DNA from: a virus
Length of the DNA stretch: 27,280 nt
Reading direction: 5' to 3' (one strand)
Virus record (IMG/VR): IMGVR_UViG_3300030035_000142
Location: 1-27,280 of that record
Positions 1 through 24,321 of this stretch are shown here, in pieces. A model generated the notes under the pieces. It was given only the letters and a program-made list of their open reading frames with translations. It was not told where the DNA came from and did not search any database. The first letter of the stretch is position 1; the number at the start of each line of letters is the position of its first letter. Position numbers and translations under genes: made by a program.

Positions 1-1188
1 ATGGCAGGCATCATCAAACGCAACAACAAATGGGTGGCCGTCTTCCGCTCCCTGGACGGCAAAGAGCTTCGGAAAACCACCGGCATCGACGTGGTTCCCA
101 AGGCGCTTCTTCCGGGAGCCAATAAGAAATCAATCATGTCCCAGAATGAAGCCCGGGCGCGGCTGGTAGCCCAGGAGATGGAGAAAGAAGCCCGGTACGG
201 GGTTTTCGACCTGGACAAGGTGAAGGCCATTGCCGGGGACCAGGCCGGCGTGCTGAAAGCCACCATGAACGGCATGACGGTAACCCGGTTCCTCTTTGAC
301 TGGCTGGACGGGAGGAAAAACAAGAAGCGGGCCTATGAGCGGGACGGCATGGCCGTCCGCAGGCTTCTGGCGTTCCTGGGGGACCGGCGGAATATGCCGC
401 TGGCCGCCCTGAATAAAGGCATGGCGAAGGATTTTGTAGAAACGGAATTGGAGCGCGTTTCCGCCGGAACCGTCATCCGCTATGTGTCCACGCTGTCCAT
501 CGCGTTCAATGTCGCTGTAGACCGGGAGATCCTTTCCCGGAATCCGTTCCGGGGCGTCATGCCTTCCCGGGCGGACCACCAGGCGGAAAAGCAGCTGCGC
601 GGCGCGTTCACGATGGAGGAAGTGAACACCATCATTGAACGGTTCCCGGATGAATGGCCGGATCTGGTGCGGGTGTGCCTCTATACCGGAGGCCAGCGCC
701 TCGGAGACCTGGCGACGCTGAAATGGGACCAGATTGACCTGAAGAACTCCTTCCTGTTCATGACCACGCAGAAGAGCCGGCGCCGCATGAACAAGCCGAT
801 CATCCAGCCCTTGAAAGAGGTTCTGGAAAGGCGTCTGGTCAACCGGGTGAACGATTACGTGTTTCCCCTGGCCGCGCTTCGCCATGCCCATGCCGGAGGT
901 CGTTCGGACAAGCTTTCCACGGAGTTCACGACATTGTTGAAAACGTACGGGATCATCAGAGAGATGCCCGGGGAAATGAGAGGCGACCGGCACCGGCTTT
1001 CGGAAAAGAGCTTCCACAGCCTACGGGCGACCGCCGTGACCGTCCTGCGCCTGGCCGGGGTGTCCCCGGATTTGTGCCGTTTCATCGTCGGCCACGACTC
1101 CGAAGAGATTGAACGGGTTTATTTCCGCCCGGATTCGTCGGACGTTCAGGAGGCCATGAGCAAGATTGCCGTCGGCTTGGCCCGTTAG
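1..1188 (+). CDS. int: Tyrosine recombinase / phage integrase
   Basis: 395-aa ORF. N-terminal arm/SAM-like region (NNKWVAVFRSLDGKELRKTTG). Catalytic-domain signatures GQRLGDLATLKW (Arg), HSLRATAVT (HxxR) and VGHDSEEIERVYFRP (His...Tyr). Ends in TAG. Confidence 0.9.
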   Translation: MAGIIKRNNKWVAVFRSLDGKELRKTTGIDVVPKALLPGANKKSIMSQNEARARLVAQEMEKEARYGVFDLDKVKAIAGDQAGVLKATMNGMTVTRFLFDWLDGRKNKKRAYERDGMAVRRLLAFLGDRRNMPLAALNKGMAKDFVETELERVSAGTVIRYVSTLSIAFNVAVDREILSRNPFRGVMPSRADHQAEKQLRGAFTMEEVNTIIERFPDEWPDLVRVCLYTGGQRLGDLATLKWDQIDLKNSFLFMTTQKSRRRMNKPIIQPLKEVLERRLVNRVNDYVFPLAALRHAHAGGRSDKLSTEFTTLLKTYGIIREMPGEMRGDRHRLSEKSFHSLRATAVTVLRLAGVSPDLCRFIVGHDSEEIERVYFRPDSSDVQEAMSKIAVGLAR

Positions 1189-1985: not shown

Positions 1986-4130
1986 TTAAGCTGGTCCGTA
2001 GGGGTAGAAGGTGCCTCCGAAGACGGGTATCTGGATCATGCCCAGCGCGTACTGCGTCACCTGGTCGTCTTCGATGTCGGCTATCAGAAAGGAATAGTCG
2101 AAGTTGACACCCGGTTTTTCTTGGGCAAGCATGATAGGATAAACGGTCCCCGGTATGCCAGATACGTCCGCGCCCGTCAGTTTGGCGTCCTGGTCGAAGT
2201 GGACGTTGAGCCATACTTCCCCGCTGGTTTGGGGGATAGTCACCCACGAGGAACCGGAACCGCCCCCCTGCGGATATTTGCCGAGCAGCGAGCCGTTCAG
2301 ATAGAGCGCGCCGGGCTTCATCTGCGCCCCGGTGATGGCTCCCTCCGTATCTTTCTGCAAGCGCACCTGAAAGCCGTATTCCGGCGCGGGCGTGGATTCT
2401 CCCGTGGATTTGGTGATGTGCTGGCTGATGGTGGGGGATTCCGGCTTGGGGTCAAAGCCGTATTCCGTCGATTCCGGCGCCCCCTGCATGTTTTCCAGCG
2501 TGGAAGAAATGTTAGAAACGGAATTAATTTCATTGAGCGAAAGCAAATCTTCAACCCCAAGTTGATTTGGCGCGCCGTAGGACAGGGAAATCGCGTTGGT
2601 CTGCAGGTCGCGCGAAACGGTTTGAATCATGGTGTTGATGTTCTGCCACTCTGGGTTGCCTCCCAGCAGCGAGACGCGCCGGCCCATGTATTGCCGCGTC
2701 TGCGCTTCTCCCAGCGCGACAAAGGAAATAGAGCCGTCCCAGGGCAATTCCTGCATGGATTCCCATACCGTTTTGGCAATGTCCCCATAGGGCACTCCTT
2801 CCGACGGTTCCGGCGATTCCCCTTCTTCCGGGCCGTTGGAGGGCTGTTCCCCGTTGTAGATGCCGTCAATGGGGTAGCTCGCGTAGGGGCGGTCCATGGT
2901 GACCAGATCCACCGAGAATTCTTCCCAGAAGCAGGGCACGCCTTGCAGGGTCCCCACATTCTTGAATTTCTCCCTCCACTTGGCCGGGGCGCTTTCCGGG
3001 ATGGCAAGACGCTGCTTGACGGTGGCGTTGCACCATTGCGGGCGGATGGATTTGGTATGAATTTGCCCGTCCGTCAGTTCATAGCCTGTGGCGGCGGTGT
3101 TGTAGCCTCGCGGCTTGTCTTCCTCCGTTCCGTCCCAGGGCTTCCCGGTGATGGTCGGATCCTGGTCATAGACGGCGATTGCTCCTACATCTTTCATCCA
3201 CGGGAAATGATGTTTCCAGAAACTGTTGATCATGTCGTTCTGGTCAATCCTGGTCCCCGTCACTTTCATGCGCTGGTAAGACAGGCTGCCGGCCCTGGTG
3301 CCCTGCACCGGCTGCGGATCTTCTACCGGCTCCCCCGTAGAACTGTATTTGGAGTAGTAGAAGTCTACTGACGTTCGGTAAACAATGGAGTGCGGCAAGG
3401 TCGGGTCCCCGTCTTCCGGGTATTTGGACAGGTAGGAGACGCGGTAGCCGTTGCTGCCGGTGGTTTCCGCGACGATAGCCACGCAGGGCGGTACGAGGTC
3501 GCCCCGGGGGACCAGGGAAACATCCATAGACTTGACCGTCGCCGTCGGCTGCAAGGGAAGCGCGATGGGCGTCAGGGCGTCATAGTCCGTGATGATGAGC
3601 TTGGGGCGCGCGCCGCTGTAGTCGTAGTAGGAAACCATGCGGGGCGACCAGCGGCGGATGGATTGAAGGAGGCTGCTCAGCGTATCGCAGGAGGCGTTCC
3701 ACGGAATCAGCATCTTGTCGTCGCTGATACGCAGCTCGTAGTCCGCCGGGTGGTGTTTGGCGAGGTTCAGCACCCGGGAGAGTGCGGAGGCAATGCTTAT
3801 CTTGGGAATGATGCCGCCCCCTCCGCTGACTTTATTCCACATGGAAAAGACCGGCTTCCATTCGGAATCCAGCGCAAAGCAGTTGTCCAGCCAATACCAG
3901 GGATCGGAAAAGACGATTTTCCACGCACGGGAAGAGCCGCTGTAGGTCTTTTCGATGCTGGAAACGAGGCCGGAAAGAATGGTGTTCCCGTTTTGGGAGA
4001 TGGAGACAGTATCGAACTGTTGGAAGGGTAAGACCTCCCCCAGCGTTCGCACGGGATAAACCGCGGTGATGGCGGAGGAGGAAAAGCTTTGCTGGTCGTG
4101 GGTCAGGCTCGACGGCTTGAGGCCCAGCAA
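1986..4130 (-). CDS. Large distal tail protein (714 aa from TTG; possible AGG start at 4157)
   Basis: Long ORF directly downstream of the tape-measure region, with no recognisable enzymatic motif. The function call rests on position and size. The first canonical start is TTG 4130. The frame is open back to TAA 4181-4179 with an in-frame AGG at 4157-4155. Confidence 0.55.
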   Translation of the reverse strand: MLGLKPSSLTHDQQSFSSSAITAVYPVRTLGEVLPFQQFDTVSISQNGNTILSGLVSSIEKTYSGSSRAWKIVFSDPWYWLDNCFALDSEWKPVFSMWNKVSGGGGIIPKISIASALSRVLNLAKHHPADYELRISDDKMLIPWNASCDTLSSLLQSIRRWSPRMVSYYDYSGARPKLIITDYDALTPIALPLQPTATVKSMDVSLVPRGDLVPPCVAIVAETTGSNGYRVSYLSKYPEDGDPTLPHSIVYRTSVDFYYSKYSSTGEPVEDPQPVQGTRAGSLSYQRMKVTGTRIDQNDMINSFWKHHFPWMKDVGAIAVYDQDPTITGKPWDGTEEDKPRGYNTAATGYELTDGQIHTKSIRPQWCNATVKQRLAIPESAPAKWREKFKNVGTLQGVPCFWEEFSVDLVTMDRPYASYPIDGIYNGEQPSNGPEEGESPEPSEGVPYGDIAKTVWESMQELPWDGSISFVALGEAQTRQYMGRRVSLLGGNPEWQNINTMIQTVSRDLQTNAISLSYGAPNQLGVEDLLSLNEINSVSNISSTLENMQGAPESTEYGFDPKPESPTISQHITKSTGESTPAPEYGFQVRLQKDTEGAITGAQMKPGALYLNGSLLGKYPQGGGSGSSWVTIPQTSGEVWLNVHFDQDAKLTGADVSGIPGTVYPIMLAQEKPGVNFDYSFLIADIEDDQVTQYALGMIQIPVFGGTFYPYGPA

Positions 4131-4235
4131 GTCATTGATGGTGATGTCGTGGTTCCTGCTGCTTGTAAAATGGTTATGTTATGGCTTGATGTTACCGTAT
4201 CTTGCCTGGTTCGGCAATGCGTTTACCTGTCCTAG

Positions 4236-8362: not shown

Positions 8363-8893
8363 TTACTGGTTGAGGTAGTCTTTCACCCCTTCGGCAATGG
8401 CTTCGGCAATGCGTCCGGGATGGTCCTTCATCAGGGCGGCGTTTTCAGGATTGGTGATAAATCCGCATTCGCACAGCACCCACGGACAGCGGGTCCTTTT
8501 CAGGACGGCGAGGCCCGGACGCGACTGGACGGTATTGGCCCGGCCGGGAAGCAGGCGGGAAAGAGGTTCCGCAATGCACATGGCCAGCCTGCTGCCCTTG
8601 ACGCTGCCCGGGTAAAAACACACATGGGCCCCATGGGCCTGGGGATTGTCGGAAGCGTCGCAATGCAGTGAGATGCCGAAGTCATAGCCGCCTTCATTGG
8701 CGGCCTTGATGGTGGCGTTCAAATCCTGGGCATTGCTCATGCCCGGAAAGTCAATCACGTCCACCTTGGCCCCCAGCTGCCGCAGCATGGGGGCGAGGCA
8801 TTCGGCGATCGTCACGGCGACGGCGTGTTCTTCAAGACCGTTCCCGCGGGCTCCGGTGTTGTTGGCATGTCCAATATCAATGGCTATTTTCAT
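8363..8893 (-). CDS. N-acetylmuramoyl-L-alanine amidase (Amidase_3-type endolysin)
   Basis: MKIAIDIGHANNTGA...EH...SLHCDAS...AHGAHVCF...LCECGFITNPENA matches the Zn-amidase type 3 pattern (DxGHG.., SiHaNa, E.gFisN). Confidence 0.85.
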   Translation of the reverse strand: MKIAIDIGHANNTGARGNGLEEHAVAVTIAECLAPMLRQLGAKVDVIDFPGMSNAQDLNATIKAANEGGYDFGISLHCDASDNPQAHGAHVCFYPGSVKGSRLAMCIAEPLSRLLPGRANTVQSRPGLAVLKRTRCPWVLCECGFITNPENAALMKDHPGRIAEAIAEGVKDYLNQ

Positions 8894-8954
8894 GAATATT
8901 CTCCTTTAATGGTTGGTTGTTAATATGATTGAACTGGTAAGAAAAACTTTACTG

Positions 8955-10118
8955 TTAATTAAACCGTTGATGGACAAAGAGCTTTTCAATCGTTTTTTTT
9001 GCGTTATTATTTGCCGCAAAGTGGCACGTTTTCGCTTTCTCCCATATGGGAACGAAATCAGAAGGAGCTTTGTATTCTGAAATGAATACCGGAAAATCTC
9101 TCGTCCGGCACCACTCCCAAAAGCGATCATGGTTAAAAAGTCCGGACTTATATCTTTCCGTCCCCTCATAAGGAGGGTCGGCATAAACCACACTACCTTC
9201 CGGAATTGTTATTTCAGTATAATCTTTCCCGCTAATTGTTAATTTCTTATCCAAATAGACATCGCTTTCCAGGCTTTCCAATCTTTGCAGACGTTCCAAG
9301 CTTTCCAGGCTTTCCAGGCTTTCCAATCTTTCCAGGCGTTCCAGGCTTTGCAGATGTTGACCGTAATAATCAACGGGGTGCAAGGTTGGCAAAATCTCAC
9401 GCAGCTTTTCAAACTCTTCCCGTGTGGGGAATGCCCATTGGCTGGATCCAAAATAATGACCCGCCATTTGAGACCCCAAATGGCGGTTTACCTCCGCTTG
9501 AGTTTTCCCAGACGCTTTCAGCGCAGCGCGCAGCTCACCTCTGAGCCATTCTTCAATATTGTCAATCTGGTCCAAAATAGAAGACCTTTGTTCCTTCCTC
9601 CTTTTCAATTCAGCCCGTGCATCCCTTAAGCCCTGAATGAATTTTTTAAACCAGGCCAGACGGTCCTCTCTGTTTTCGGACATGATCATACGGAGCGCCG
9701 CCAACTTTACTGGCTCAAGGTCTGCGTTCCATAAATAACATTCACCGTGATTTCCAAATGACCATAAGAGGGCGACCGCCGCATCATGATCTTTCACGCG
9801 GTTGAACTCATCCCGATCAACAGCCCTCCGGTCACAATCTGTCAAACGCCCTGTTGCCGCACGAAAAAATAAATCAGGAAATTGCCGCTGAATATCATTG
9901 GCGATGACCCTGGGCCACTTCCCCGACCATAATGCCGCATGAGTCATGGCACACCCACCCGCGAAAAGATCAACAAATACCGGCCCTTCTGGTAAAATAT
10001 TCACCAGATCTGCGGCGATCTTATTTTTTGAGCCCATATAAGGCAATCCGAAACTGGCAGGTTTTTTTCTCGGAAGAGCGCATGGGGAGCTTAACCGTCT
10101 GGGATAAGAAGCAATCAC
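8955..10118 (-). CDS. N6-adenine DNA methyltransferase (Dam/D12-class-like) with an internal LES/LER repeat
   Basis: N-terminal LPYMGSKNKIA..., AdoMet motif VDLFAGGCAM and catalytic VYADPPY. The start is uncertain: GTG 10118 overlaps the upstream gene, and the ATG at codon 28 is an alternative. The gene is visibly more AT-rich than its flanks. Confidence 0.8.
   Translation of the reverse strand: MIASYPRRLSSPCALPRKKPASFGLPYMGSKNKIAADLVNILPEGPVFVDLFAGGCAMTHAALWSGKWPRVIANDIQRQFPDLFFRAATGRLTDCDRRAVDRDEFNRVKDHDAAVALLWSFGNHGECYLWNADLEPVKLAALRMIMSENREDRLAWFKKFIQGLRDARAELKRRKEQRSSILDQIDNIEEWLRGELRAALKASGKTQAEVNRHLGSQMAGHYFGSSQWAFPTREEFEKLREILPTLHPVDYYGQHLQSLERLERLESLESLESLERLQRLESLESDVYLDKKLTISGKDYTEITIPEGSVVYADPPYEGTERYKSGLFNHDRFWEWCRTRDFPVFISEYKAPSDFVPIWEKAKTCHFAANNNAKKTIEKLFVHQRFN
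9264..9353 (-). repeat. In-frame imperfect 9-nt tandem repeat array inside the Dam-like methyltransferase gene
   Basis: The + strand shows repeated GGCTTTCCA / AGCTTTCCA / ATCTTTCCA units. They encode LQSLERLERLESLESLESLERLQRLESLES. Confidence 0.85.
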
Positions 10119-10366
10119 CTTTCCAGTTTCCTTTCTATATTTTCTATTCTGACGGCAAGCAGCTGAATCGCCTTGGCCGTCTCGACCTGGGCCTGTGTCT
10201 GCATGGTCATCAGGTCACACAGCCGGTCATTATGGTGTCCCATGACATCCCCGATGTACCAGCAGGACGCGCCGCAAATGACCAGCGACAGCATGACGCA
10301 GGCCAACACGGGTGATGCCTTGGCAAAATCCATGAAACGCGCCGGCACTTCGGAGAGTTTGCACAT
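10115..10366 (-). CDS. Small membrane protein with a C-terminal coiled coil (i-spanin- or holin-accessory-like)
   Basis: 83 aa with an ATG start. Hydrophobic segment SPVLACVMLSLVICGASCWYI, then heptad-like QTQAQVETAKAIQLLAVRIENIERKLE. It lies next to the other small membrane protein and in the same gene block as the amidase. Confidence 0.4.
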   Translation of the reverse strand: MCKLSEVPARFMDFAKASPVLACVMLSLVICGASCWYIGDVMGHHNDRLCDLMTMQTQAQVETAKAIQLLAVRIENIERKLER

Positions 10367-10662: not shown

Positions 10663-11067
10663 TTATTTAATAGTGAAATGCTTGAAAAACGCCACCGCGG
10701 CGGGGGCGGTAATGACGAACTCCGGGTAGTCGCGGTCCGTAAAAATCCTGCGCCCGCCCTGTGGATTGACGGCTTCCACGGCCAGATACACCGCCTCCAC
10801 TCCCACAATGGGGTCATCCTCATTGACAGGATCCGGGTAATACCAATCCTGTGTTGCCCACACCTGGACGGCCTGCCAATCCTCACCCAATCCCACCAGC
10901 GCGGCCACTACGGCGGCCATGGCCGGGGTCTGGTTCGCCGGAATCTCGTCCTGCGTATAGCGGTCTATGCGGGTGTACCCTTCCTCGTCCTGGTAAATGG
11001 CCGCCAGGCCGAATTCATCCCATTGACCGGGTTTCGGGAACTGTATTTGTATCTCGGAATTATTCAT
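10663..11067 (-). CDS. Hypothetical acidic protein downstream of the fibre gene (fibre-assembly candidate by position only)
   Basis: 134-aa ORF. Its ATG overlaps the fibre stop (ATGA). No motif recognised. Confidence 0.45.
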
Positions 11068-13004
11068 GATTCTATCGGCACGTTAATATCTTCAAAAGCG
11101 GCGGTTGCCTCGGATTCAACGGCATTCGTTCCTATTGCGTTCAACCCGTAAAAGAGGGGGTTCACATTGCCCGGCTGGTAGTAGGCATATTCTCCGGGCC
11201 CCGCATAAACGGAAGCCGTGCCGCTGGTGGTGTTGATCACATCCGTCACCCACCTGGAAATGCCGACGCCGGTCTCAAAATTGGAGACGCCCCGGCAGGT
11301 GGCGATCTTGAACAGGTTGTTGGTCTGTGCCCCCGTGACCAGCAGCCAGAGGCCTCCCAGGTTTTCATAAACGCTGCTGTTGGCAACCGTCTGCTGCTGG
11401 TAAATAATCTTGCACACCGTCCACGGGACGGGCTCGTTTTGCGTCGCCGGGATAAAGCTGGTCGTCGTCTTGACCTGCCATCCATCGGCGGACGTCAGCG
11501 CATAAATTTCACGCACGCGCACCGTATAGCCGTTGCGCGCCGTATCGCGCACGTTGTCAAAGGTGATGTCCAGAATCTCCCCGGAATTAAATGCCAGGTC
11601 ATTGCCCGGAATAATCGTGTAGGAGTCGGTGGTAAGGTCTGTCCTGATTGTTTTCGCCCCCCGTCCGATGCCCATCGTTATCTTCGCCGCGGCCGTGGCC
11701 CGCCAGACAAATGAAAAGCCGGCCCAGGAAGAATAATTCCATTGGGAACTGGGGCCTTCAAAAGGGGCCTGAATAGTCGTGTGAGCGCCCGCGGAAATTC
11801 CTATGCGGGCCATCTGGTAGGGAACCGTTTTAGTCACCGTTGCCGTGCCGGTAGTTGTCAGCGTGTCCGTATTCAGGAAAGCCGCCGCCGTATAAGCATT
11901 GGCTGCGCCTCCCATGCCCGCGGCATACAGGCGGTTGACGCCGGATTCATTGGTCGGCGCTCCCACGGCCAGCGGGATGTTGACGCCTCCATTGGCGTTG
12001 ATGGCGCTTGAAAACGTGGATGTCCCCGCGCAGTTGAAGCTGGCGCCCTGGCTGATATTCAGGATTCCGGTCTCTACCATGAATGTCCCTCTCAGCCATC
12101 CGCCCGACCGAAGATCGACCGACTGGTAAAACCGGGTGATCCCGTAAATCTGGTTCAGCGTGCCGGCGCTTCCGCTGCCGTCCGGGTTGTTGACCACCAG
12201 AGGCCCGTTCACGGTAGCTGATTCGGCTGTCAGGGCTCCCCCGATATTCACATCGCCAACGTTGGATGTCAGAGTACCAGGATCTCCCTTTTCCCCTTGC
12301 GGCCCCTGGGGGCCTGCCGGACCTTCCGGCCCCTGGGGGCCCTCCGGGCCTTGAGGCCCCGCCGGTCCTGTATCTCCCTTCGGTCCCTGCTCCCCGGTTT
12401 CGCCCTGCGGCCCGCGTTCCCCGGTTTCGCCGCGTGGACCTTGCGGCCCTTCGGGTCCGGTTTCACCCCGTTCACCCTGCGGGCCTGACGGTCCCTGAGG
12501 ACCAACATCCCCGCGGGGAATCGTGAAATTGAGCAGATAGGATCCTGATTCAGTTCCCTTGACGGCTTCCGCGTTGGCGGGCGTCCCCGGTTCCCCGGTG
12601 GTGACCTGACCCACGGACAGATTAAAATTCTCGGCGTACTTTTTGGCCTGCTCCGCGTACCAGGCGGCGCTGGACGCGTTATCAAGCATGATTTGCACGC
12701 AGCCGCTTCCTTCCGGCAGCTGCACGACGACCGCGCCCGCCACGGCCTGCTGTTCGTCCGGCAAGTCCGGCGTCACCCGGCCCGAAGAAACAAAGCATCC
12801 GTAAAGGAACGGGCTTTCCTCGTTTCCGTCGTCCATGAAGACGTCATAGGACCACATGCCCGCAGGCACCGAAGCCCAGGAAATTACGCCATTGCCCTCG
12901 TCATCGCGTGAAAAGCCGAACTCCGTCACGCCCGTCTTGAGACGGACAGCGCCGCGCAGGGTGACGCCGCTCATATCGACGGGATCGCCCTGAAAATCCA
13001 CCAC
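11064..13004 (-). CDS. Collagen-like repeat tail fibre protein (646 aa from GTG; possible AGG start at 13070)
   Basis: About 26 uninterrupted G-X-Y triplets ([76 protein letters not shown]), flanked by a beta-rich N-domain and a ~400-aa C-terminal domain. Confidence 0.8.
12276..12512 (-). repeat. Collagen triple-helix (G-X-Y)n coding repeat
   Basis: Read directly from the translation of residues ~165-243 of the fibre ORF. Confidence 0.9.
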
Positions 13005-13072
13005 GCGGACGACCAGGGACTGGTTCAGCCCTGTGACGGTCCGGATATCGTATTTACCTGCCTGCTGCCTGG

Positions 13073-13106
13073 AAAAAAAGAGGATGCGGGGGAGCAGCGC
13101 TCCCCC
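13073..13106 (-). terminator. GC hairpin plus T7 run between the tube and fibre genes (weak intrinsic terminator or attenuator)
   Basis: Minus-strand GGGGGAGC-GCT-GCTCCCCC (8-bp perfect stem), then GCATCCTC and TTTTTTT. The 8-nt spacer between the stem and the U-run is atypical. Confidence 0.3.
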
Positions 13107-13118
13107 TGGTGAAACACG

Positions 13119-13730
13119 TCAGGAACCCGGCACCGGCGTCACGTCCTGCACATTGGAAGGCGTGAAATTGTAGTCGCCGCGGTAATCCATTTCGAACTCG
13201 AACTGGGGTGAAGCGATCGCCGTGGTGTGTTCGGGGTCCTGCAGGAGGCGCAAATCTCCGTGCGCCACGCCCGTCAAGTACACCGTCCCCACGTCGTTCT
13301 GATACCAGAAACGGATATGTCCGGAAATTTTATTATCCCCGCCATGGCCGACGGTGGTCGATTCCTCGCCGTTGGCGGGAGCCGCCCCCAGGGCAAACGC
13401 CAGCTGGAAGTATTCGGGCGACATATCCGGCGTGGTGAAAGTCATCCGCTTGCCGGTCGTCGTGTTCTTGCGCTGCTGCCGGTAGCCAAGATTGCCTCCG
13501 TAAAAGCGCGTCACTTCCCCCTCGACCTGCGTGGCAACGGACTGGAACGCGCCCAGCAGCCCGAAACTCACCCAAGGCGCTTCGGGCCCGGCTGTCGGAT
13601 CGGCCGGAGGATTGGCGGGAGGTTCGGGATATTGGCCGGGGCCGGTAACGTAAGAGGCTCCCTCGTCCTCGGTCACCTTGATGCCGTCGGGGAGGAAAAT
13701 AGCCAGAACGCCGGTAATCTGCGGCGTCAC
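13119..13730 (-). CDS. Putative major tail (tube) protein (203 aa from GTG; possible AGG start at 13769)
   Basis: The function call rests on size and position after the head-completion genes. The frame is open back to the upstream gene's TAA. AGG GCT ACT at 13769 would give MATTYDPIFTNRNV... Confidence 0.45.
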   Translation of the reverse strand: MTPQITGVLAIFLPDGIKVTEDEGASYVTGPGQYPEPPANPPADPTAGPEAPWVSFGLLGAFQSVATQVEGEVTRFYGGNLGYRQQRKNTTTGKRMTFTTPDMSPEYFQLAFALGAAPANGEESTTVGHGGDNKISGHIRFWYQNDVGTVYLTGVAHGDLRLLQDPEHTTAIASPQFEFEMDYRGDYNFTPSNVQDVTPVPGS

Positions 13731-13784
13731 GTTGCGGTTGGTAAAGATAGGATCGTATGTAGTAGCCCTGATGCTTGAAAAAAG

Positions 13785-17036: not shown

Positions 17037-17777
17037 TTAATCGGCGGAGGCCGTCGCGTCGATGCGGACGATGGCGCCGGGGTTGGTCAGCTTGGTCAGC
17101 GAGTAGACGCGGTTGGTGACGAGCGTCAAGGCCAGCGTCGGCTTGTATTCGGTGATGACTTCGCGGCGAAGCTGGCCGGAAAGACCGAAGGTTTTGACGG
17201 CGGAGGCGTCGAACTGCGTCGGGGAATCTTCCTTGTACAGGACATAGACTTCGTTTTCCATGATGGTTTTCGCGTCGCCGGAAGCGTCGCGGTACGGCAT
17301 GGAGGCGATGTAAATATCCCGGATGGGCCGGATCAGAGCCATGCGAAGCAGGTCTTCGTTGAACAGGCCGACGCTGTTGAAGGAAACCACCTGGCGCGCG
17401 AGCGTGTTGGAGCGAAGCAGCTGCCACGCGTTGATGCCGAAGACAATCGTGTTCGGCATGTGTCCGGTTGCGGCGTTGATGGACAGGATCGCCTGGTCCA
17501 GATCCGCCAACGGGTTTTTCTGCTGGTTGGCCCAGTCACCCATCCCGGAAGCGGCCGGAAGCTGGCTCATCAGAAGCTTGGCGCGTTCGTATTCGTACGA
17601 CGTCACAAACTGGGATTCGATGAGTTTGTATTCCGCCAGGGTGATGGCCTGCGCCTTTTCCCGGTTGACGCCCAGCAAGGCGTCAGGGATGGGCAGCGTC
17701 AAGCCGTAGCCCTGAAGGGTGTCGGTTTCGTTTCTTCCGCGCAGGACGGTCTGGCGGGGAGGTTCGCCCGGTCCCAC
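17037..17777 (-). CDS. Major capsid protein, lambda gpE-like (coordinates from the first canonical GTG; true N-terminus probably at AGG 17963)
   Basis: PLADLDQAILSINAATGHMPNTIVFGINAWQLLRSN parallels lambda gpE PTDDIEAYALNASGVVNIIVFDPKGWALFRSF. At 246 aa it is too short for this family. The frame is open for 72 more codons upstream, and these read like capsid N-terminus. Confidence 0.75.
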   Translation of the reverse strand: MGPGEPPRQTVLRGRNETDTLQGYGLTLPIPDALLGVNREKAQAITLAEYKLIESQFVTSYEYERAKLLMSQLPAASGMGDWANQQKNPLADLDQAILSINAATGHMPNTIVFGINAWQLLRSNTLARQVVSFNSVGLFNEDLLRMALIRPIRDIYIASMPYRDASGDAKTIMENEVYVLYKEDSPTQFDASAVKTFGLSGQLRREVITEYKPTLALTLVTNRVYSLTKLTNPGAIVRIDATASAD

Positions 17778-17997
17778 CTGGATGGGCTGGACGGTGAAGG
17801 CCGATTCCGTGTCCCAGACCTTGTACTGGAAATTCAGGTCATAGACCGGGACGATCGGAGCGATGCGGCTGATGATGGAGTTCTCTTCTGTGTTCCCGGA
17901 CCCCGCGGAATAGGAGGTCAGGACATCGGTGAACTGAACGGCGGAGCAAAATGGAGTAGCCCTTGTTCTTGGTCTTTCTGTTGGTTGGGGTTAATAG

Positions 17998-18447: not shown

Positions 18448-19569
18448 TTATCGGTTGGCGGAGACGATGAAGCCTTCTTCGGTCGCTTTCTGGTAGGCGT
18501 CATAGCGCTTCATGCCGTCCTTGATCAGTTCGTTCACACGGTTGTTGAATCCTTCAATGGATTCCTTCTTGCGGAACGGATCAGGGGGATTCAGCGTCAC
18601 GCGGCGGTTCAGAGGCGTCCTTTGCGGAAGCTTCTTCTGCTCCGGCTGCTCCTGTTTCTGTGGGGCCGCCTGGCGGTTGAGCGCACGGATAAAGGCGTTC
18701 AGCGCGGCGGGGCTTTCCCGGAGAGAGTTTTTCAGCTCTTCCCGGCGTTCTTCCGTAAATTCCTCGCGTTCTTCCTCGTCCAGCGCGTTTTCGTACGTGC
18801 TGACGGCGTCGTCCACTTCGGCGTTCACGTGGTCTTTCTCGCGCTTTTCCAGCGAGAGCAGTTCATCAAGTCGTCCGAGGATCGCCCTGCTCATATCGTC
18901 GGTGCCGTCAAATTCGACATCCAGCTTGTCAAGCAGGGAATCGAACAGGGCCCGCTGGGCCTTGTCCATTTCCTTGGACGGATATTCTCTATCGTCGTTG
19001 TCCATATTGGTGTTCTGGGTTATTTCCCCCTCTTCGCGGGGCTTTTGTGGTTTGGTGTCGCCCCCGGCCTCGTCGGAGGCGGGGGAAGTCTGTCGGTTGA
19101 CCAGCGGCCGCTTTCCCTTGATGCGGGGTCGGTTGGTCAGGGCAAAGCCGGTCAGGCGCGACGGTCGGTAAACGCCGTCCGTAAAGGTCATGCCTTCGCC
19201 GTATTCCGTAGAAGATTGCGTATATTCTTTGTCCTCGAGCATCTTCAGGCCGCGGGGAGTCCATTCAATGAAGCCGTAGAGTTCCAGCGTACCGGAAGGG
19301 TCTCGGTAGGTGTCCAGCCTCTTGAGCCATCCGAGAGCCCGCGTATCGCGGGAAAGGTCGTGGCTCAGGTGGTCGCCGTCGATGAGCATGCCCGGCCCGT
19401 CAAAGGTGCGGGCGTTGAAGTCGTCCACCATGTCCCGGATCGCCTGCTCGTCGATGCGCAGCACGGCGGGTCCTTCACCGTAGTCGACGTCATGGTCTCC
19501 GCTTTTCTCGATGTGATACCAGCCGTTGGCGGGTCGGGACAGGTCATTGATTTGTTTCGTACTGATCAT
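18448..19569 (-). CDS. Mu gpI-like prohead protease / scaffold fusion
   Basis: The N-domain GDHLSHDLSRDTRALGWLKRLD...LELYGFIEWTPRGLKMLEDKEYTQSSTEY...RLTGFALTNRPRIKG matches the Mu-like prophage I protein pattern. The C-terminal half is an acidic coiled coil (scaffold-like). Confidence 0.7.
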   Translation of the reverse strand: MISTKQINDLSRPANGWYHIEKSGDHDVDYGEGPAVLRIDEQAIRDMVDDFNARTFDGPGMLIDGDHLSHDLSRDTRALGWLKRLDTYRDPSGTLELYGFIEWTPRGLKMLEDKEYTQSSTEYGEGMTFTDGVYRPSRLTGFALTNRPRIKGKRPLVNRQTSPASDEAGGDTKPQKPREEGEITQNTNMDNDDREYPSKEMDKAQRALFDSLLDKLDVEFDGTDDMSRAILGRLDELLSLEKREKDHVNAEVDDAVSTYENALDEEEREEFTEERREELKNSLRESPAALNAFIRALNRQAAPQKQEQPEQKKLPQRTPLNRRVTLNPPDPFRKKESIEGFNNRVNELIKDGMKRYDAYQKATEEGFIVSANR

Positions 19570-20680
19570 CGGTAAATCCTTTCATGAGTCCGGCGTAAAT
19601 CATTTGCTGAAGCTGCTCGTAGGCGTCGGGCGGAATGAGGGAGGCTCCCGACTCCCTGTTGACTGCCGCCGCCGTCGGCACAGGCTCCCTCGTGTCCTCG
19701 ATCGACATGCCGATCTTTTCTTCGATTTCGGTTTTCTCCGGACGGACGCCTCCGTCCGCAAGGGCGGCGATTTCCTCGGCCTTCTGCAATGGCGTCTGGA
19801 CGGTGTCAAAGGTGATGTGGAGGCGGGCCAGCGGTTCGCCGTCTCCCAATATAAGCGGGCTGATGGCGGTGTTGAACGCTTCCGCCACTTTGGAGCAGAC
19901 GGCGGATACCACCGCATTCCAGCTGTCCGTATGGGCGGACCCGGCCAGCGTGCCTGATCCTGATTCGTTCAGGACCGTCAGGGTTCCGGCCATCACAAAA
20001 CGCACCTGGTCCTTGTCGGCCATGTTGATGCGCGAGAGAAAATAGTTTTCGTTGATGTTGGACGCCTTGAGCGGTTCCGCCTTGCAGTCAGGAGGCAGCA
20101 CGATAGAGGCGCCTGATTTAAGCTGTTCGCAGGCCCGTTCCAGCGCGTCCATGACGGCGGGACTCGCGTCCTTGGGGGCGGTGATGATGACCGGGGCGCT
20201 TCCGTAGCGGTCCATGTGGTTGTCCCACGTGATTTTTGCGTGGTTGCGCTCAAAAGAAGCGCGGGCAGCCGGGAACAGGATGGGATACTGGTGTTCCATC
20301 ACGACGAGCGTTTCGTCTTCCACGCTTTCCCCGGTGTCGACGCCGATATAGCACTGTGGGTTGAACTGCCACTCGTTCAACACTCCCGGCCTCACCCAAT
20401 AGCGCTGTGGGATGAATTCAAAGCGGCGGCCCCAGGCGTCCTCAATGTATTGGAGGTGGGCGTAACCGTAGAACATGGCGGAGGCCAGCTGCCCAAAGGC
20501 CTGTTGAAGTCCGGTGACGGAGTGATAGAATTCTTCCAGCGCGTTCTGCTGACGCTGGGCTTCCGGGCTGTCGTCCGCGGCGTCAATCTTCCAGCCCTGC
20601 ATGGAGACGCTTTCAATGAGGCGGGAGTAGAGCATTCCCAGCAGCCCGTCCGAGTAGATGACCTCGTCCCAGATGAGCAT
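19544..20680 (-). CDS. Portal protein, Mu gp29 / DUF935-like (coordinates from the first ATG; true N-terminus probably at AGG 20908)
   Basis: 378 aa from the ATG is short for this family. The conserved block ...ADLQTLIDARNEARRGAFARQ|MLIWDEVIYSDGLLGMLYSRL spans the ATG. The frame is open upstream to within the tRNA gene and has no ATG/GTG/TTG. Confidence 0.8.
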   Translation of the reverse strand: MLIWDEVIYSDGLLGMLYSRLIESVSMQGWKIDAADDSPEAQRQQNALEEFYHSVTGLQQAFGQLASAMFYGYAHLQYIEDAWGRRFEFIPQRYWVRPGVLNEWQFNPQCYIGVDTGESVEDETLVVMEHQYPILFPAARASFERNHAKITWDNHMDRYGSAPVIITAPKDASPAVMDALERACEQLKSGASIVLPPDCKAEPLKASNINENYFLSRINMADKDQVRFVMAGTLTVLNESGSGTLAGSAHTDSWNAVVSAVCSKVAEAFNTAISPLILGDGEPLARLHITFDTVQTPLQKAEEIAALADGGVRPEKTEIEEKIGMSIEDTREPVPTAAAVNRESGASLIPPDAYEQLQQMIYAGLMKGFTDDQYETNQ

Positions 20681-20928
20681 TTGGCGGGCAAAGGCTCCCC
20701 GCCGCGCTTCGTTCCGGGCGTCAATCAGGGTTTGCAGGTCGGCTCCCTGTAACGGATCCCAATATTCGAACCATTGGGGCCTGCCTGGCTTGCGGCTTTG
20801 TTCCGTCAGGGCTCGCCGGGTGAGATCCGTTTCAAGTTCCTTGATTCTGGTCTCCTGTTGGGCGACCAGCTTCGGGGCGTTGAGGATATTTCTTAATGCG
20901 TTAAACCTGCGGCGAAAGAAAAAAATGG

Positions 20929-21002
20929 TGGTTGCAGGGGGGGGAATTGGACCCCCTACTCGGGCACAGGAAACCCGCGTGATAACGTTTCACCACCCTG
21001 CG
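20929..21002 (-). tRNA. tRNA, anticodon CCU (AGG-reading), with an initiator-like acceptor stem and a non-canonical D/T loop
   Basis: Manual cloverleaf: CGCAGGG UG GUGA-AACGUUA-UCAC G CGGGU-UUCCUGU-GCCCG AGUA GGGGG-UCCAAUU-CCCCC CCCUGCA A CCA. All stems pair (one U.G), U33 is present, position 37 is a purine and CCA is encoded. Position 1:72 is a C x A mismatch. Confidence 0.6.
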
Positions 21003-21018
21003 ATTGTTTACATATCGT

Positions 21019-21047
21019 CATATATTGATATATTGATATATTGTCAA
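21019..21047 (-). promoter_or_regulatory. Near-consensus sigma70-type promoter directly upstream of the tRNA
   Basis: The minus strand reads TTGACA (21047-21042), a 17-nt spacer, then TATATG (21024-21019), about 17 nt before tRNA position 1. It starts 2 nt after the terL stop codon. Confidence 0.4.
21021..21044. repeat. 3 x 8-nt tandem repeat TATATTGA / TATATTGA / TATATTGT
   Basis: Read directly from the + strand. It fills the spacer and -10 region of the putative tRNA promoter. Confidence 0.85.
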
Positions 21048-21049
21048 CC

Positions 21050-22357
21050 CTAATATCTCCCGTAAGCGCGTTTTGATGACACGGGCCGGGCGTACCAGGC
21101 TCCCAGCGTCCGGGCCAGTCCGCTGTGCCGGCGCGCGTGCCAGGCCATGACGAGGGCGTCGGCGCGGTCGGGAGAACGGACGCCCCGTTTCGCCATGTCT
21201 TCCTTGCTTTCGATTTTGACGCGGCCGATCGCGTCGGTTTGGAGCCGGGGCGCTACCAGCTGCTCAATCGTGTCCTCGTCAATGTCGAGGATGAGTTCCT
21301 TTTCTTCGATGGCTCGGGCCAGGGCCCGCCACGCCTGGGCGCGGAGGTTGACAAAGGCCTGCGTATCGTCTGCCGGGAAACCGCCCCGGTAGGAGTGCAC
21401 CGGGAAGCCCTCGGCGCGGAAGTCGTCAATGATGGGTAGTCCAAGGCCGTCTCCGTCCGCGTAAATGCGGTCGGCGGGGATGCCGAGTTCGGACGCCCTG
21501 CGGCGGAACCGTCCGCGCGCTCCTACGGTGTCCGGGTCCGACCAGTGGTCGGCGATGAAGAATCGGTTGCCCTGCCCGGCCGCGAAGACGTTTTCGTCGC
21601 CTCCGGCCGCGAAGTCGAAGCCGCCGCAGGTCTCCCCGGTGTCCAGAAAGGGAGGCGGGTTGTTGACCAGATCCATGAGGGCGCGCCGGGGAATGACGGA
21701 CTGACCGTCGAGGTCCGTGAATTCGCCGAGGATGGCGGAGCGGTAGAAGGAGGACTGCTCGCCGTATTCTTTTTTCAGGCGCTCGGCCTTGCCCGGGTCA
21801 TTGATCTCAATGTGGGGGCAATCCTCGTATTTGACGCGGATCTTGTAGTAGAGGGATGAATTTTTGTGGAAGCAGTCGTAGAAGGTGCCGGAATCGGCCC
21901 CAGGTGACGAGGTAATGAACGCGTGGAAGAGCGTGCAGCGGGAAACGGCGGTGAAGATGGAGTCCGGGATGGTTTTAGCCTCGTCGAGGACGTAAAAGAC
22001 GGGGTCCACGTCGGGCGAGATTTTCGGGTGCCATCCTTCCGCGCGGCCGGCGTTGTCGGTCGAGAAGCCCACGGCAAAGCCTCCCTCCGGCGTGCGAATC
22101 TCGGTTTTGTTGAATGTCCAGCCGTCAAAGAAAGGGTTGTCCATGTAGCGGCGGAGCGCGGGAAAGAGCTGCTTTTCCACCTGCATCCACGACGACGACG
22201 TAACCGGCACCTGACCCCGCGGGAAGCAGGTAAGGAAGTACAGGATGGCCGGAGCGATGCAGTTGCTCGTCTTGCCGGATCCGTTGGGAGCAACCAGAGC
22301 CACGCTTTTCCCTCCCAGGGTCAGCTTGCCGAGGGACAACGCCTTGATGGCTTCCAC
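21050..22357 (-). CDS. terL: Terminase large subunit (coordinates from the first canonical GTG; true N-terminus probably at AGG 22423)
   Basis: Walker A VAPNGSGKT, Walker B-like FYVLDEAK and a C-terminal nuclease-type acidic motif (SPDRADALVMA). The typical TerL N-terminal block FFLRHVLRLDPYPWQ lies upstream of the GTG. Confidence 0.9.
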   Translation of the reverse strand: MEAIKALSLGKLTLGGKSVALVAPNGSGKTSNCIAPAILYFLTCFPRGQVPVTSSSWMQVEKQLFPALRRYMDNPFFDGWTFNKTEIRTPEGGFAVGFSTDNAGRAEGWHPKISPDVDPVFYVLDEAKTIPDSIFTAVSRCTLFHAFITSSPGADSGTFYDCFHKNSSLYYKIRVKYEDCPHIEINDPGKAERLKKEYGEQSSFYRSAILGEFTDLDGQSVIPRRALMDLVNNPPPFLDTGETCGGFDFAAGGDENVFAAGQGNRFFIADHWSDPDTVGARGRFRRRASELGIPADRIYADGDGLGLPIIDDFRAEGFPVHSYRGGFPADDTQAFVNLRAQAWRALARAIEEKELILDIDEDTIEQLVAPRLQTDAIGRVKIESKEDMAKRGVRSPDRADALVMAWHARRHSGLARTLGAWYARPVSSKRAYGRY

Positions 22358-22429
22358 CTGCCAGGGATAGGGATCCAGGCGGAGGACATGGCGGAGGAAG
22401 AAGCTGACGGGGAGGCGTGTCCTGGTCTG

Positions 22430-22996
22430 TTAAGCGTGGAGTTTGCCGGCGATGGTTTCCAGCGCGGTTTTCTCGTCTTCCTGCAGCTGGGCCAGCTGCT
22501 CGGGGTCCAGGGTGATTTTCCGTTCCAGCGGCGCGCCGGGAACGCCGGCGACATCCTGACGGACCCGGTCGCCGAATTTTTCCGGCGCGAATCGGGCGGC
22601 GACTTTCAGCCGGGTTTCAATGGCGAGCTTCTTCGCGGCGACGGAGGCGGAGCCGCATTCCGGGTCCAAGGCGACTTTCGCGGCTTCGTCGGCCAGCTCC
22701 TGACAGGCGTCAATCATAGCTTCCGACTGCGCTTCCCGCGCGCGTTGAATGATTTTACAAAACTCTTCCCGCTCATGTCTCCATCTCCAGACAGTTAAAA
22801 CATCCGGCATGTGGTCATCGGAGCAGATGGATTTCATGGTTTCCCCGTTGGCAAGACGGGTGGCTATCTCGGCGGCCAGTTCCTCGGTGTAGAGGCTCGG
22901 CCGCCCCGGTTTTCTTTTGGTGGTAGGTTTCTTTTTCCTTCCGGGACGATAAGATTTTTTTAGTAGCGCGTCAAAACAAGATTTTTTCTCTTGCAT
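22430..22996 (-). CDS. terS: Terminase small subunit
   Basis: I start at ATG 22996 (MQEKKSCF...). GRPSLYTEELAAEIATRLANGETMKSICSDDHMPDVLTVWRWRHEREEFCKIIQRAREAQSEAM matches the widespread HTH-type TerS N-domain. The 270-aa long form is antisense to the neighbouring + gene and looks hydrophobic and junk-like. Confidence 0.7.
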   Translation of the reverse strand: MQEKKSCFDALLKKSYRPGRKKKPTTKRKPGRPSLYTEELAAEIATRLANGETMKSICSDDHMPDVLTVWRWRHEREEFCKIIQRAREAQSEAMIDACQELADEAAKVALDPECGSASVAAKKLAIETRLKVAARFAPEKFGDRVRQDVAGVPGAPLERKITLDPEQLAQLQEDEKTALETIAGKLHA

Positions 22997-23019
22997 CACT
23001 AAACATTGTTTAGTATATT
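22991..23019 (+). promoter_or_regulatory. Putative promoter of the plus-strand small-gene operon, with a palindromic operator in the spacer
   Basis: TTGCAT (22991-22996), a 17-nt spacer, then TATATT (23014-23019). The spacer contains the perfect 7-1-7 palindrome CTAAACA-T-TGTTTAG (22999-23013). The -10 overlaps a copy of the TATATTGA 8-mer seen at the tRNA promoter. Confidence 0.4.
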
Positions 23020-23089
23020 GATCTTGTTGATGGGAGGTAAGGGACCAACCGGAGACACAATCCAAAACCAAACCAGAAAGACTAAAACA

Positions 23090-23347
23090 ATGAACGCTGA
23101 TAAAACTTACAAAATCCGAGAAATATTCACCTTTCACCGCCATGAAATAGCTATTGCCGGAGAAGTGGTGAAAAACTATGACGAAGAAGGAAGAACCTAT
23201 AATTTTTATTGCCCGGTGCGGGAAGTCCACGGCGTAAGGCATGGATTTGTCAGCGGCAATGTTCCGGAAGAAGTAAAAGACTTTGTTGATGTGAGAGACA
23301 TCCTTGAAAAAGCGGAAGAATACGATGTGGTTGTAGATTGGGACTAA
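23090..23347 (+). CDS. Small acidic hypothetical protein (85 aa)
   Basis: I start at ATG 23090, preceded by the A-rich leader AACCAAACCAGAAAGACTAAAACA. The upstream TTG-initiated extension is hydrophobic and junk-like. AT-rich gene. Confidence 0.55.
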   Translation: MNADKTYKIREIFTFHRHEIAIAGEVVKNYDEEGRTYNFYCPVREVHGVRHGFVSGNVPEEVKDFVDVRDILEKAEEYDVVVDWD

Positions 23348-23376
23348 AATAAAACCAAATCAGAAAGAACAAGACA

Positions 23377-23745
23377 ATGACTAAAAACGAATTAACAGAA
23401 ATTCTCAAACTGCACGAAATGTGGCTGAACGAGGAAGAAGGCGGCGCTCAGGCCAAATTTGAAGACCTCGACCTCAGGGGGCTCGACTTTAGGGGTGCTA
23501 ACTTAATCAAGGCTGACTTTAAGGACGCCGACTGTTCCGGAGTTGATTTCACAGGGGCCGACTTGAGATGTGCCGATTTCACCGGGGCCAATCTAACCGG
23601 GACCGATTTCTCCGGGTGCAATCTGAAATGGGCCAATTTTTACAAGGCCAATCTAACCGGAGCCAGATTTAACGGGGCTATCCTGGAATGCGCCGACTTT
23701 AGATGGGCCCGCGGGATTGTCGATCTGACCGTAGGGAAAGCTTAA
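23377..23745 (+). CDS. Pentapeptide-repeat protein
   Basis: About 18 consecutive A(D/N)LXX-type pentapeptides (DLRGLDFRGANLIKADFKDADCSGVDFTGADLRCADFTGANLTGTDFSGCNLKWANFYKANLTGARFNGAILECADF). Confidence 0.85.
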   Translation: MTKNELTEILKLHEMWLNEEEGGAQAKFEDLDLRGLDFRGANLIKADFKDADCSGVDFTGADLRCADFTGANLTGTDFSGCNLKWANFYKANLTGARFNGAILECADFRWARGIVDLTVGKA

Positions 23746-23760
23746 ACACAAACCAAACAC

Positions 23761-24069
23761 ATGAAAAAATATATTATCCCTCAAAAGTTTAGAGATACGT
23801 CTTTATCAGATATCTCCTCTACCAAGTATGACCGCATCATTGAATTTCCGGAAGGTCACAAATTTGCGGTTGTCCTGGCTGCGTACTACATCAAAGATGT
23901 CAACGAAGAACCATGCTATTATACCTACCAAACACAAGACGAAGCGCTCAATGCAATAGCAAAATACTGGAATGATTATTGCTACGAAGTAATTGACGAC
24001 GAAGGTTATCAGCGTTGGGATATCATGAGATGTGGCCCTGTTGGGAGGCGATTTGAGCAAATCAAATAA
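23761..24069 (+). CDS. Small acidic hypothetical protein (102 aa)
   Basis: ATG with the A-rich leader AAACACAAACCAAACAC. No motif recognised. Confidence 0.55.
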   Translation: MKKYIIPQKFRDTSLSDISSTKYDRIIEFPEGHKFAVVLAAYYIKDVNEEPCYYTYQTQDEALNAIAKYWNDYCYEVIDDEGYQRWDIMRCGPVGRRFEQIK

Positions 24070-24083
24070 TCGGAAGCTCAAAT

Positions 24084-24284
24084 ATGAATCCTCAAGAATT
24101 TGTTGATTGGGTCCAGTCCAGATACCATTTGCGATCCAAAACTTCTGCGGTCAAAAAGGCTGCGCAGATGTTGCGGGTGACAGAAATGGCTGTATGGCAA
24201 TGGTTGGGCGGGTCCAGAAAAACGAGTCCGTCGATGGAGCTGTTGATGGAGCTAATCACCCGTCACGGATTGCCGGACGAATAG
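24084..24284 (+). CDS. Small HTH DNA-binding protein (Cro/YdaS/Aca-like)
   Basis: 66 aa. VKKAAQMLRVTEMAVWQWLGG fits a helix-turn-helix of the '..lgVs..avsqW..g' type. It is the last gene of the plus-strand operon. Confidence 0.55.
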   Translation: MNPQEFVDWVQSRYHLRSKTSAVKKAAQMLRVTEMAVWQWLGGSRKTSPSMELLMELITRHGLPDE

Positions 24285-24287
24285 ACC

Positions 24288-24321
24288 TATACGAGATTCC
24301 AGGGTATACGAGATTCCAGGG
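24288..24321. repeat. Exact 2 x 17-nt tandem repeat TATACGAGATTCCAGGG
   Basis: Read directly from the sequence. It fills nearly the whole 37-nt gap between the convergent stop codons at 24282-24284 (+) and 24322-24324 (-). Confidence 0.9.

Follow-up and report, generated by a model that had tools for sequence, protein, structure and literature searches.

The viral record IMGVR_UViG_3300030035_000142 of IMG/VR, of which positions 1 to 27,280 were analysed (the whole 27,280-nt stretch, hereafter the window), carries between its large terminase and portal genes a tRNA gene that combines a CCU anticodon with the acceptor stem of a bacterial initiator tRNA. Six packaging and virion genes of this phage, including the portal gene directly downstream of the tRNA, very likely start at AGG, and there is good reason to think that the initiator-like tRNA(CCU) is what reads these starts. 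With somewhat more reserve, we consider it probable that the whole constitutes a natural orthogonal initiation system, in which the anticodon of a phage initiator tRNA was changed from CAU to CCU and AGG became the dedicated start codon of six virion genes, as a gate or as an insurance. As far as we know, an initiator tRNA of anticodon CAU begins all cellular and viral translation described so far, non-AUG starts being near-cognates read by this same tRNA.

The window corresponds to the greater part of the genome of a temperate phage of Akkermansia muciniphila. Its terminase-portal region is 93% identical to pJ30893, a 32,814-bp circular record from A. muciniphila JCM 30893 (NZ_AP021899.1, locus L132), and the window shares 86% identity with Akkermansia phage DTMo-2021a. 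The complete phage genome has no other tRNA gene. Other loci are cited by number below where they need to be told apart.

The portal gene and its start codon

The elements around the portal start, all on the minus strand, are as follows:

19544..20908 (-), portal gene of the Mu gp29 / DUF935 family, 454 codons from AGG
20906..20908 (-), putative portal start AGG, present in 44/46 loci and 53/53 metagenome contigs
20681..20905 (-), N-terminal extension of the portal (codons 2-76), without canonical start, conserved as protein
20909..20928 (-), non-coding, pyrimidine-rich spacer of 20 nt without Shine-Dalgarno sequence, differing in length and sequence among relatives
20929..21002 (-), tRNA of 74 nt with anticodon CCU, initiator-type acceptor stem and encoded CCA (ARAGORN; Rfam tRNA, 47.4 bits)

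The first ATG of the portal frame, at 20680, would yield a protein of only 378 amino acids (aa), the open reading frame (ORF) ending at 19544. None of the 103 codons ahead of this ATG is ATG, GTG or TTG in the portal frame, which stays open upstream as far as a TGA (20992-20990) located within the tRNA gene (21002..20929). The CCA end of the tRNA, at 20929, is followed by 20 nt (CCATTTTTTTCTTTCGCCGC) and then by AGG (20908-20906) and TTT AAC GCA TTA AGA. The facts given in the initial annotation were all confirmed here. It had not noted that the CCU anticodon of the tRNA is complementary to AGG, nor the initiator-type features of the tRNA or the AGG shared by five further genes. Its proposal that the portal is translated from this AGG as a 454-codon gene is now supported by comparative data, namely a conserved extension, a variable spacer and the presence of ATG or TTG at the same codon in relatives.

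A homology search returned 40 close portal homologues, all from Akkermansia phages, with called lengths of 310 to 493 aa; their start calls disagree, falling within the tRNA, at a downstream codon or at an ATG. Residues 1-76 are nonetheless conserved in all relatives. Across 45 of them, the 76-codon extension displays no insertion or deletion, and its variable sites number 25, 13 and 64 at codon positions 1, 2 and 3, respectively. In contrast, the spacer between tRNA and AGG measures 15, 16, 22 or 23 nt in relatives versus 20 in the window, shifts that are not multiples of three. This predominance of third-position variation and the lack of indels indicate that portal translation covers the sequence from the codon that follows AGG, and that the region upstream of AGG is non-coding.

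The AGG itself is fixed in 44 IMG/VR contigs while the spacer changes in both sequence and length, and it is also present in the finished circular pJ30893 and in an integrated prophage. A search with the full-length tRNA pattern, in which the anticodon was left free, recovered 53 further metagenome contigs; all have CCT, and in all of them AGG-TTy follows. Of the 46 related loci, 44 have AGG at the portal codon and two do not. In L045, whose portal (P0013, 454 aa) begins MFNALKNIL, an ATG occupies the very codon that is AGG in the window and the tRNA is still found upstream; in L046, whose portal (P0037) is 60% identical and begins MIKTLKNLF, the homologous codon is TTG. A more distant lineage represented by a metagenome-assembled genome (L133, 63% identical) has tRNA(CCT), a 26-nt spacer and AGG TTT CAA. 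Together, these data strongly support AGG 20908-20906 as the predicted start of the portal.

Two further expectations of the initial annotation could be examined. The first, that the DUF935 match would extend upstream of the ATG, holds for one profile but not for another: Pfam PF06074 (Portal_Mu) matches the 454-aa ORF over profile positions 3-336 of 336 (E=9.3e-32) but only from residue 79 to 401, i.e., from about MLIWDE and the ATG, whereas the PHROG 113 portal profile spans residues 31-421. As for the possibility that related portals are equally short, relatives with canonical starts encode proteins of 454 to 473 aa. The peptides FNALR and LVAQQETR are expected only if the portal is read from AGG.

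Five other genes with probable AGG starts

L046 also allowed the other structural genes to be compared: its proteins were aligned to the window and each of its start codons was projected onto the window sequence. Five more genes for which AGG is the predicted start emerged from this comparison and from conservation among relatives:

21050..22423 (-), large terminase (PHROG 2), AGG at 22423-22421, two codons past the small-terminase stop
17037..17963 (-), major head protein (PHROG 1005), AGG at 17963-17961, the sole AGG of the ORF
13119..13769 (-), 215-aa protein of the virion module without family match, AGG at 13769-13767, the sole AGG of the ORF
11064..13070 (-), collagen-like tail fibre (tail-fibre PHROGs), AGG at 13070-13068
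1986..4157 (-), 722-aa protein of unassigned family, AGG at 4157-4155, seven codons past an in-frame stop

The clearest case is the major head protein, whose first canonical codon lies 62 codons after AGG. Its AGG corresponds codon for codon to the ATG of L046 (MPNNFCTAVQF in L046 versus R-ATPFCSAVQF in the window) and is found in 44 of 46 loci, with ATG in L036 and L046. Here too, a peptide, ATPFCSAVQFTDVLTSYSAGSGNTEENSIISR, is expected only if translation begins at AGG. In the large terminase, the first canonical codon is a GTG at 22357, 22 codons downstream of AGG, and the conserved LPVSFFLRHVLRLDPYPWQ lies before it. AGG is present in 43/45 relatives, L036 having an ATG one codon downstream and L046 an ATG, and L133 has ATG as well; of note, the terminase AGG sits 2 codons downstream of the L046 ATG and is not exactly aligned with it. 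The AGGs of the 215-aa protein (37/38 with AGG) and of the fibre (35/36; MSTPALYNIKTLTGL in the window) both align with the L046 ATG.

The 722-aa gene falls beyond the compared 11-kb part of L046, and its AGG was compared in 17 relatives, all of which have it (17/17). In-frame stops lie just upstream, and the codons between AGG and a conserved TTG, nine codons further on, vary mostly synonymously; this TTG is an alternative start, and AGG is the probable one.

All six AGGs are also found in pJ30893, as are the five that could be checked (5/5) in the integrated prophage L140. AGG makes up 0.59% of the internal codons of the window genes, and the chance that at least 4 of the 12 aligned starts would be AGG is P=5.6e-7. 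Other late genes (protease, 143-aa, 158-aa, 378-aa and 221-aa) have ordinary ATG starts according to the L046 projection.

With AGG as start, the RefSeq starts of all six genes in pJ30893 are wrong, five of the genes being shortened and the portal coding sequence extending into the tRNA gene. In addition, a GC-rich hairpin followed by a T-run, resembling a terminator, lies directly upstream of the fibre AGG (about 13073-13107, minus strand), and in L046 the homologous gene likewise has a hairpin of this type ahead of its ATG (about 9395-9425).

A tRNA with initiator features and a CCU anticodon

ARAGORN labels the tRNA gene as tRNA-Arg(CCT), and in its drawing C1 and A72 are unpaired and followed by A73 and CCA. 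Sixteen distinct 74-nt variants, collected from 80 loci and the window, align without gaps. In the cloverleaf formed by these 16 variants 100% of the cells pair, and 8 of the 20 pairs display compensatory double changes; none of 500 shuffles reaches the cloverleaf values, and shifted registers score far lower. Full pairing together with compensation indicates that the tRNA is functional and under selection. Every copy found has a CCU anticodon, in the 80 loci, in the 53 metagenome contigs and in L132, L133 and L140, and the full-length search with a free anticodon, which gave these 53 contigs, returned no family member with another anticodon.

In the E. coli initiator tRNA, the 1x72 mismatch blocks use by EF-Tu and, together with pairs 2:71 and 3:70 and with A73, directs formylation; C1xA72, G2:C71, C3:G70 and A73 are, from what is known in E. 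coli, the defining features of bacterial initiator tRNAs. The reference tRNAs used for comparison were E. coli tRNAfMet and argW. The former, a tRNA-Met gene in four copies, was found in all 5,426 E. coli genomes, and ARAGORN draws it with the same unpaired c/a as the phage tRNA; the latter, tRNA-Arg(CCU), has G1:C72 and A20.

These four features are conserved in the phage tRNA. The C1xA72 mismatch is invariant in 16/16 variants and in L133, C3:G70 and A73 are invariant as well, and G2:C71 is found in 15/16 variants, with a G:U in the remaining one. Acceptor pairs 4 to 7 differ among variants, with compensatory changes (CGCAGGG/CCCUGCA, CGCGGGA/UCCCGCA and, in L133, CGCGGAU/AUCCGCA). Three G:C pairs (29-31:39-41) adjoin the anticodon loop in 12 of the 16 variants and in L133; the window copy, whose anticodon stem is CGGGU/GCCCG, and the L017 type have U31.G39, while the L008 and L032 types have A29:U41. 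The D loop reads AACG(G/U)UA, with U at position 20, so that A20 is absent. Judged on these features, the tRNA(CCU) appears to be of initiator type and not an ordinary arginine tRNA. As for the amino acid that it carries, our best guess is arginine, which C35, U36 and A73 would favour even if A20 is missing.

The D-arm pattern GUGAAACGGUAUCAC is by itself generic among phage tRNAs (Trp, Thr, Met). A fourth base pair with the start region, between G37 of the tRNA and the usual C at -1, is unsupported, as variants with A37 (L017 type) keep the C at -1.

An unrelated phage (L097, positions 895-968 of IMGVR_UViG_3300001487_000076) encodes a tRNA-Met(CAT) that shares the short D arm and has a G1xA72 mismatch and A73. 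It may be a genuine phage initiator tRNA, and a gene of this type might have given rise to the CCU tRNA.

Co-occurrence of the tRNA and AGG starts

The tRNA is present in every AGG-start locus whose sequence covers the tRNA region. L046 has canonical starts on all five homologous genes within the 11 kb examined, and ARAGORN finds no tRNA in these 11 kb of its 24.6-kb contig. Between these two situations, several genomes are mixed. L036/L068 (IMGVR_UViG_3300010163_000397) has tRNA(CCT) and AGG on the portal, 215-aa and fibre genes, and ATG on the terminase and head protein genes; L045 has tRNA(CCT) with ATG on the portal, and L133 has tRNA(CCT) with ATG on the terminase. The exceptions found in L036 and L133 show that AGG and ATG are swapped at starts gene by gene, and these mixed genomes are natural intermediates in which the spread or the reversion of AGG starts could be traced. 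Searches for more L046-like or L133-like members gave none that was new in IMG/VR, and one integrated prophage among species-representative genomes.

Weighing the alternatives

A first alternative is that the AGG starts are read, weakly, by the host initiator tRNA(CAU) through a mismatch at the middle position, while the phage tRNA serves in elongation as an ordinary tRNA-Arg(CCU), either to supplement a rare codon or to stand in for a host tRNA targeted by a defence system. AGG is indeed one base off AUG, and initiation by native initiators is promiscuous at times, AGG included, according to work cited in a bioRxiv preprint (10.64898/2026.04.16.719103). Phage tRNAs are moreover often explained by codon compensation or defence evasion (PMC10264068), and the ARAGORN label, the CCU anticodon and the A73 discriminator all fit tRNA-Arg(CCU). 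On the other hand, in E. coli reporters with the native initiator, AGG behaves as a non-canonical start signal that is repressed by IF3 (PMC6868393), and the major head protein, required in hundreds of copies, would then hang on such a signal. Nor does codon usage point to a supplement: internal AGG represents 0.33% of codons in the structural genes of the window versus 0.37% in L046, and there is none at all within the head and 215-aa proteins, which argues against any special need in elongation. An elongator would also have to accommodate the invariant C1xA72, G2:C71, C3:G70 and A73, an initiator signature that disfavours EF-Tu, and AGG starts are confined to genomes with the tRNA. Overall, this explanation appears unlikely.

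Even less probable, in our view, is that the genes start at downstream canonical or near-cognate codons (the ATG at 20680, giving the 378-aa portal, or GTG, TTG, ATC, ATT or CTG), AGG being instead an RNA signal such as a Shine-Dalgarno core or a processing site. Automatic annotation chooses such starts, the Pfam portal match begins at residue 79, at the ATG, and the 722-aa gene has its conserved TTG nine codons in. Against this stand the extensions themselves, which are conserved as protein immediately downstream of AGG, where variation falls on third positions and indels are absent, and which align with the N-termini of the canonically started L046 proteins. For these same reasons, downstream ATC, ATT and CTG codons were rejected as starts. 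A role of AGG as Shine-Dalgarno core was likewise discarded, since no start-like codon lies at a suitable spacing and since ATG substitutes for AGG at precisely this codon in L045 and L036, a replacement that no RNA signal would explain.

Finally, an artefact or defect (sequencing error, decaying-prophage pseudogene, or insertion of a tRNA that decapitated the portal) might be suggested by the unusual location of a tRNA between terminase and portal genes and by the singleton status of the window tRNA copy, but is scarcely credible given that the same arrangement recurs in about 100 contigs of independent origin, as well as in the finished circular record of an isolate and an integrated prophage, and that the genes are under purifying selection.

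The proposal of a dedicated initiator tRNA for AGG starts has its own difficulties. The D stem has U11:A24 in all variants and not the initiator-type A11:U24, and the window tRNA is a singleton variant in which U31.G39 replaces the third G:C pair and a G-to-U change is found in the D loop; natural initiator variants with comparable changes in the anticodon-stem G:C pairs do exist. The tRNA has neither CAU, the main determinant for methionyl-tRNA synthetase, nor A20, an identity element for arginyl-tRNA synthetase in E. coli. If arginine is carried, basic aminoacyl-tRNAs are formylated poorly in E. coli, and an N-terminal arginine could destabilise proteins in bacteria with the Leu/Phe-transferase N-degron pathway. 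The absence of the tRNA from L046 applies to 11 kb of its 24.6-kb contig only. Lastly, the tRNA carriers L036, L045 and L133 have ATG on one or two of the genes concerned, and many late genes start with ATG, so that the selective benefit is not evident.

Promoter and leaders

One more element completes the region:

21003..21049 (-), intergenic sequence from the large-terminase stop to the tRNA, with TTGACA, then TATATG/TATGTG 17 nt downstream, and ATATCAA repeats

Of 35 distinct variants of this upstream region, 33 have the -35-like TTGACA. A consensus promoter scanner makes no call on this strand at 21003..21049, where the -10 is imperfect. This intergenic sequence is the probable promoter of the tRNA, and of the portal operon, and the ATATCAA repeats could be sites for a regulator.

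Leaders of the structural genes are G-poor and devoid of Shine-Dalgarno sequences, whether the gene starts at AGG or at ATG. Without a Shine-Dalgarno sequence, codon-anticodon pairing must largely determine where translation starts. A clear Shine-Dalgarno sequence, AAGGAG, is in contrast found before the ATG of the amidase (endolysin) gene (8893-8910, minus strand), and the phage thus appears to have two classes of translation-initiation region. The AGG ahead of the amidase gene was considered as another AGG start and rejected, as it belongs to this genuine Shine-Dalgarno sequence.

A model for initiation at AGG

We propose that transcription of the tRNA probably starts at a conserved promoter of its own, and that the tRNA is then probably released from a transcript running into the portal gene; the latter would be left with a leader of about 20 nt without Shine-Dalgarno sequence. 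C1xA72, together with G2:C71, C3:G70 and A73, would keep the tRNA off EF-Tu and direct it to the route of formyltransferase and IF2, while the G:C pairs beside the anticodon loop would license binding to the P site. CCU would then pair with AGG in the P site and the 30S subunit would initiate there. The six virion genes would be efficiently translated only when the tRNA is present, making AGG a private start codon. Within this model, decoding by the phage tRNA rather than by the host initiator, processing of the tRNA and its formylation are the steps that we infer.

Such a system may have originated when the anticodon of a phage-borne initiator tRNA changed once, from CAU to CCU, after which single T-to-G changes would have turned ATG into AGG in one gene after another, an order of events that is itself conjectural. 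The mixed states of L133, L036 and L045 fit this stepwise replacement of ATG by AGG. Its purpose is a matter of speculation: it could be a translational gate on virion production, an insurance against host attack on the initiator tRNA, or a device that links the genes of the module.

Relation to known systems

The phage tRNA is closest to the bacterial tRNAfMet, such as that encoded by metZWV and metY in E. coli, with which it shares C1xA72, G2:C71, C3:G70, A73, an encoded CCA and, in most tRNAs of the phage family, the three G:C pairs beside the anticodon loop. The acceptor stems, CGCAGGG/CCCUGCA in the phage and CGCGGGG/CCCCGCA in E. coli tRNAfMet, are one base pair apart, and the L017 type has G4:C69 like E. 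coli. Unlike tRNAfMet, the phage tRNA has CCU instead of CAU, U11:A24, a 7-nt D loop, a 4-nt variable loop and a T loop that is mostly UCC and not UUC, and it is encoded by the phage and presumably does not carry methionine. As it lacks the CAU/methionine feature, it cannot be filed as a tRNAfMet. It shares with the elongator tRNA-Arg(CCU) its anticodon, and its short D arm is generic for phage tRNAs, but it differs from that elongator in the lack of both a 1:72 pair and A20, and by the absence of any enrichment of internal AGG in the phage.

Its closest functional counterparts are engineered. When the E. coli initiator tRNA is mutated to CCU, expression of AGG-start reporters increases 35- to 402-fold, and among 12 pairs CCU/AGG gives the best result in each of six E. 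coli strains, in one of which it exceeds AUG (10.64898/2026.04.16.719103). In another engineered case, intended for phage biocontainment, the expression of phage genes is made to depend on a special, amber initiator tRNA (10.1101/2024.07.29.605542). In these systems, i.e., i-tRNA(CCU)/AGG, i-tRNA(AAC) and the amber initiator, as would be the case in the phage, the initiator body is kept, the anticodon is changed and the complementary codon is placed at chosen starts. They are, however, man-made and built on the E. coli tRNA, while that of the phage would be natural, conserved in a clade, acting on six virion genes whose leaders lack Shine-Dalgarno sequences, and found in a verrucomicrobial host.

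Suppressor tRNAs of crAss-like and Lak-type phages recode stop codons, with a concentration in late and structural genes. The tRNA described here would similarly change the meaning of a codon in late genes, which then depend on the phage tRNA. In contrast to suppressor-tRNA recoding, the change would operate at initiation and not at stop codons, and internal AGG keeps its sense; the two are thus analogous, and the phage system is not a member of that class. The portal protein for its part is an ordinary Mu gp29 / DUF935 portal, with a full-profile Pfam match and a Mu-like protease/scaffold as neighbour, and only its start codon is unusual.

A literature search, in journals that were not exhaustively covered, found neither a natural non-CAU initiator tRNA nor a dedicated non-canonical start codon in phages. 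If the present interpretation is correct, this would be, to our knowledge, the first natural instance of both a non-CAU initiator tRNA and a start-codon reassignment, and a new kind of deviation from the genetic code, the counterpart at initiation of the stop-codon recoding of phages. The orthogonal initiation pursued in synthetic biology would already exist in nature, with the same CCU/AGG pair that performs best in E. coli, and would provide a ready, evolved part for the control of gene expression in a medically relevant gut bacterium. It would also mean that gene callers and RefSeq mis-annotate all six genes throughout the phage family, by truncation or by running the portal into the tRNA, and that similar systems elsewhere would escape standard annotation.

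Other features of the window

Outside the genes discussed above, the window comprises:

(-), structural genes in the order small terminase, large terminase, tRNA, portal, Mu-like protease/scaffold, 143-aa protein, major head protein, then head-tail genes, 215-aa protein, collagen-like fibre, lysis and accessory genes, and 722-aa protein
1..1188 (+), integrase
23242..22430 (-), small terminase
19569..18448 (-), Mu-like protease/scaffold

The record pJ30893 is labelled as a non-mobilizable plasmid, yet it holds an integrase, a full virion module and an amidase and is a complete genome of this phage. The small-terminase ORF (22430-23242, minus strand) encodes 270 aa from its first ATG, while the family match covers only residues 106-234 and the gene of a relative is called at 135 aa; the true start is probably an internal ATG.

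A DNA methyltransferase-like gene (8955-10118, minus strand), with a DPPY motif and an internal ERLESLESLESLERLQRLESLES repeat, resembles an accessory (moron) gene, and its translation probably begins at the ATG of MGSKNK and not at the listed GTG. The 32-codon startless leader of ORF 10214..8955 was considered as a further case of AGG start and rejected, as the methyltransferase starts at a normal ATG. On the opposite (plus) strand, 23377-23745 encodes a 122-aa pentapeptide-repeat protein; the gene, located between the small terminase and the genes upstream of it (region of about 22430-24300), may be another accessory (moron) gene.

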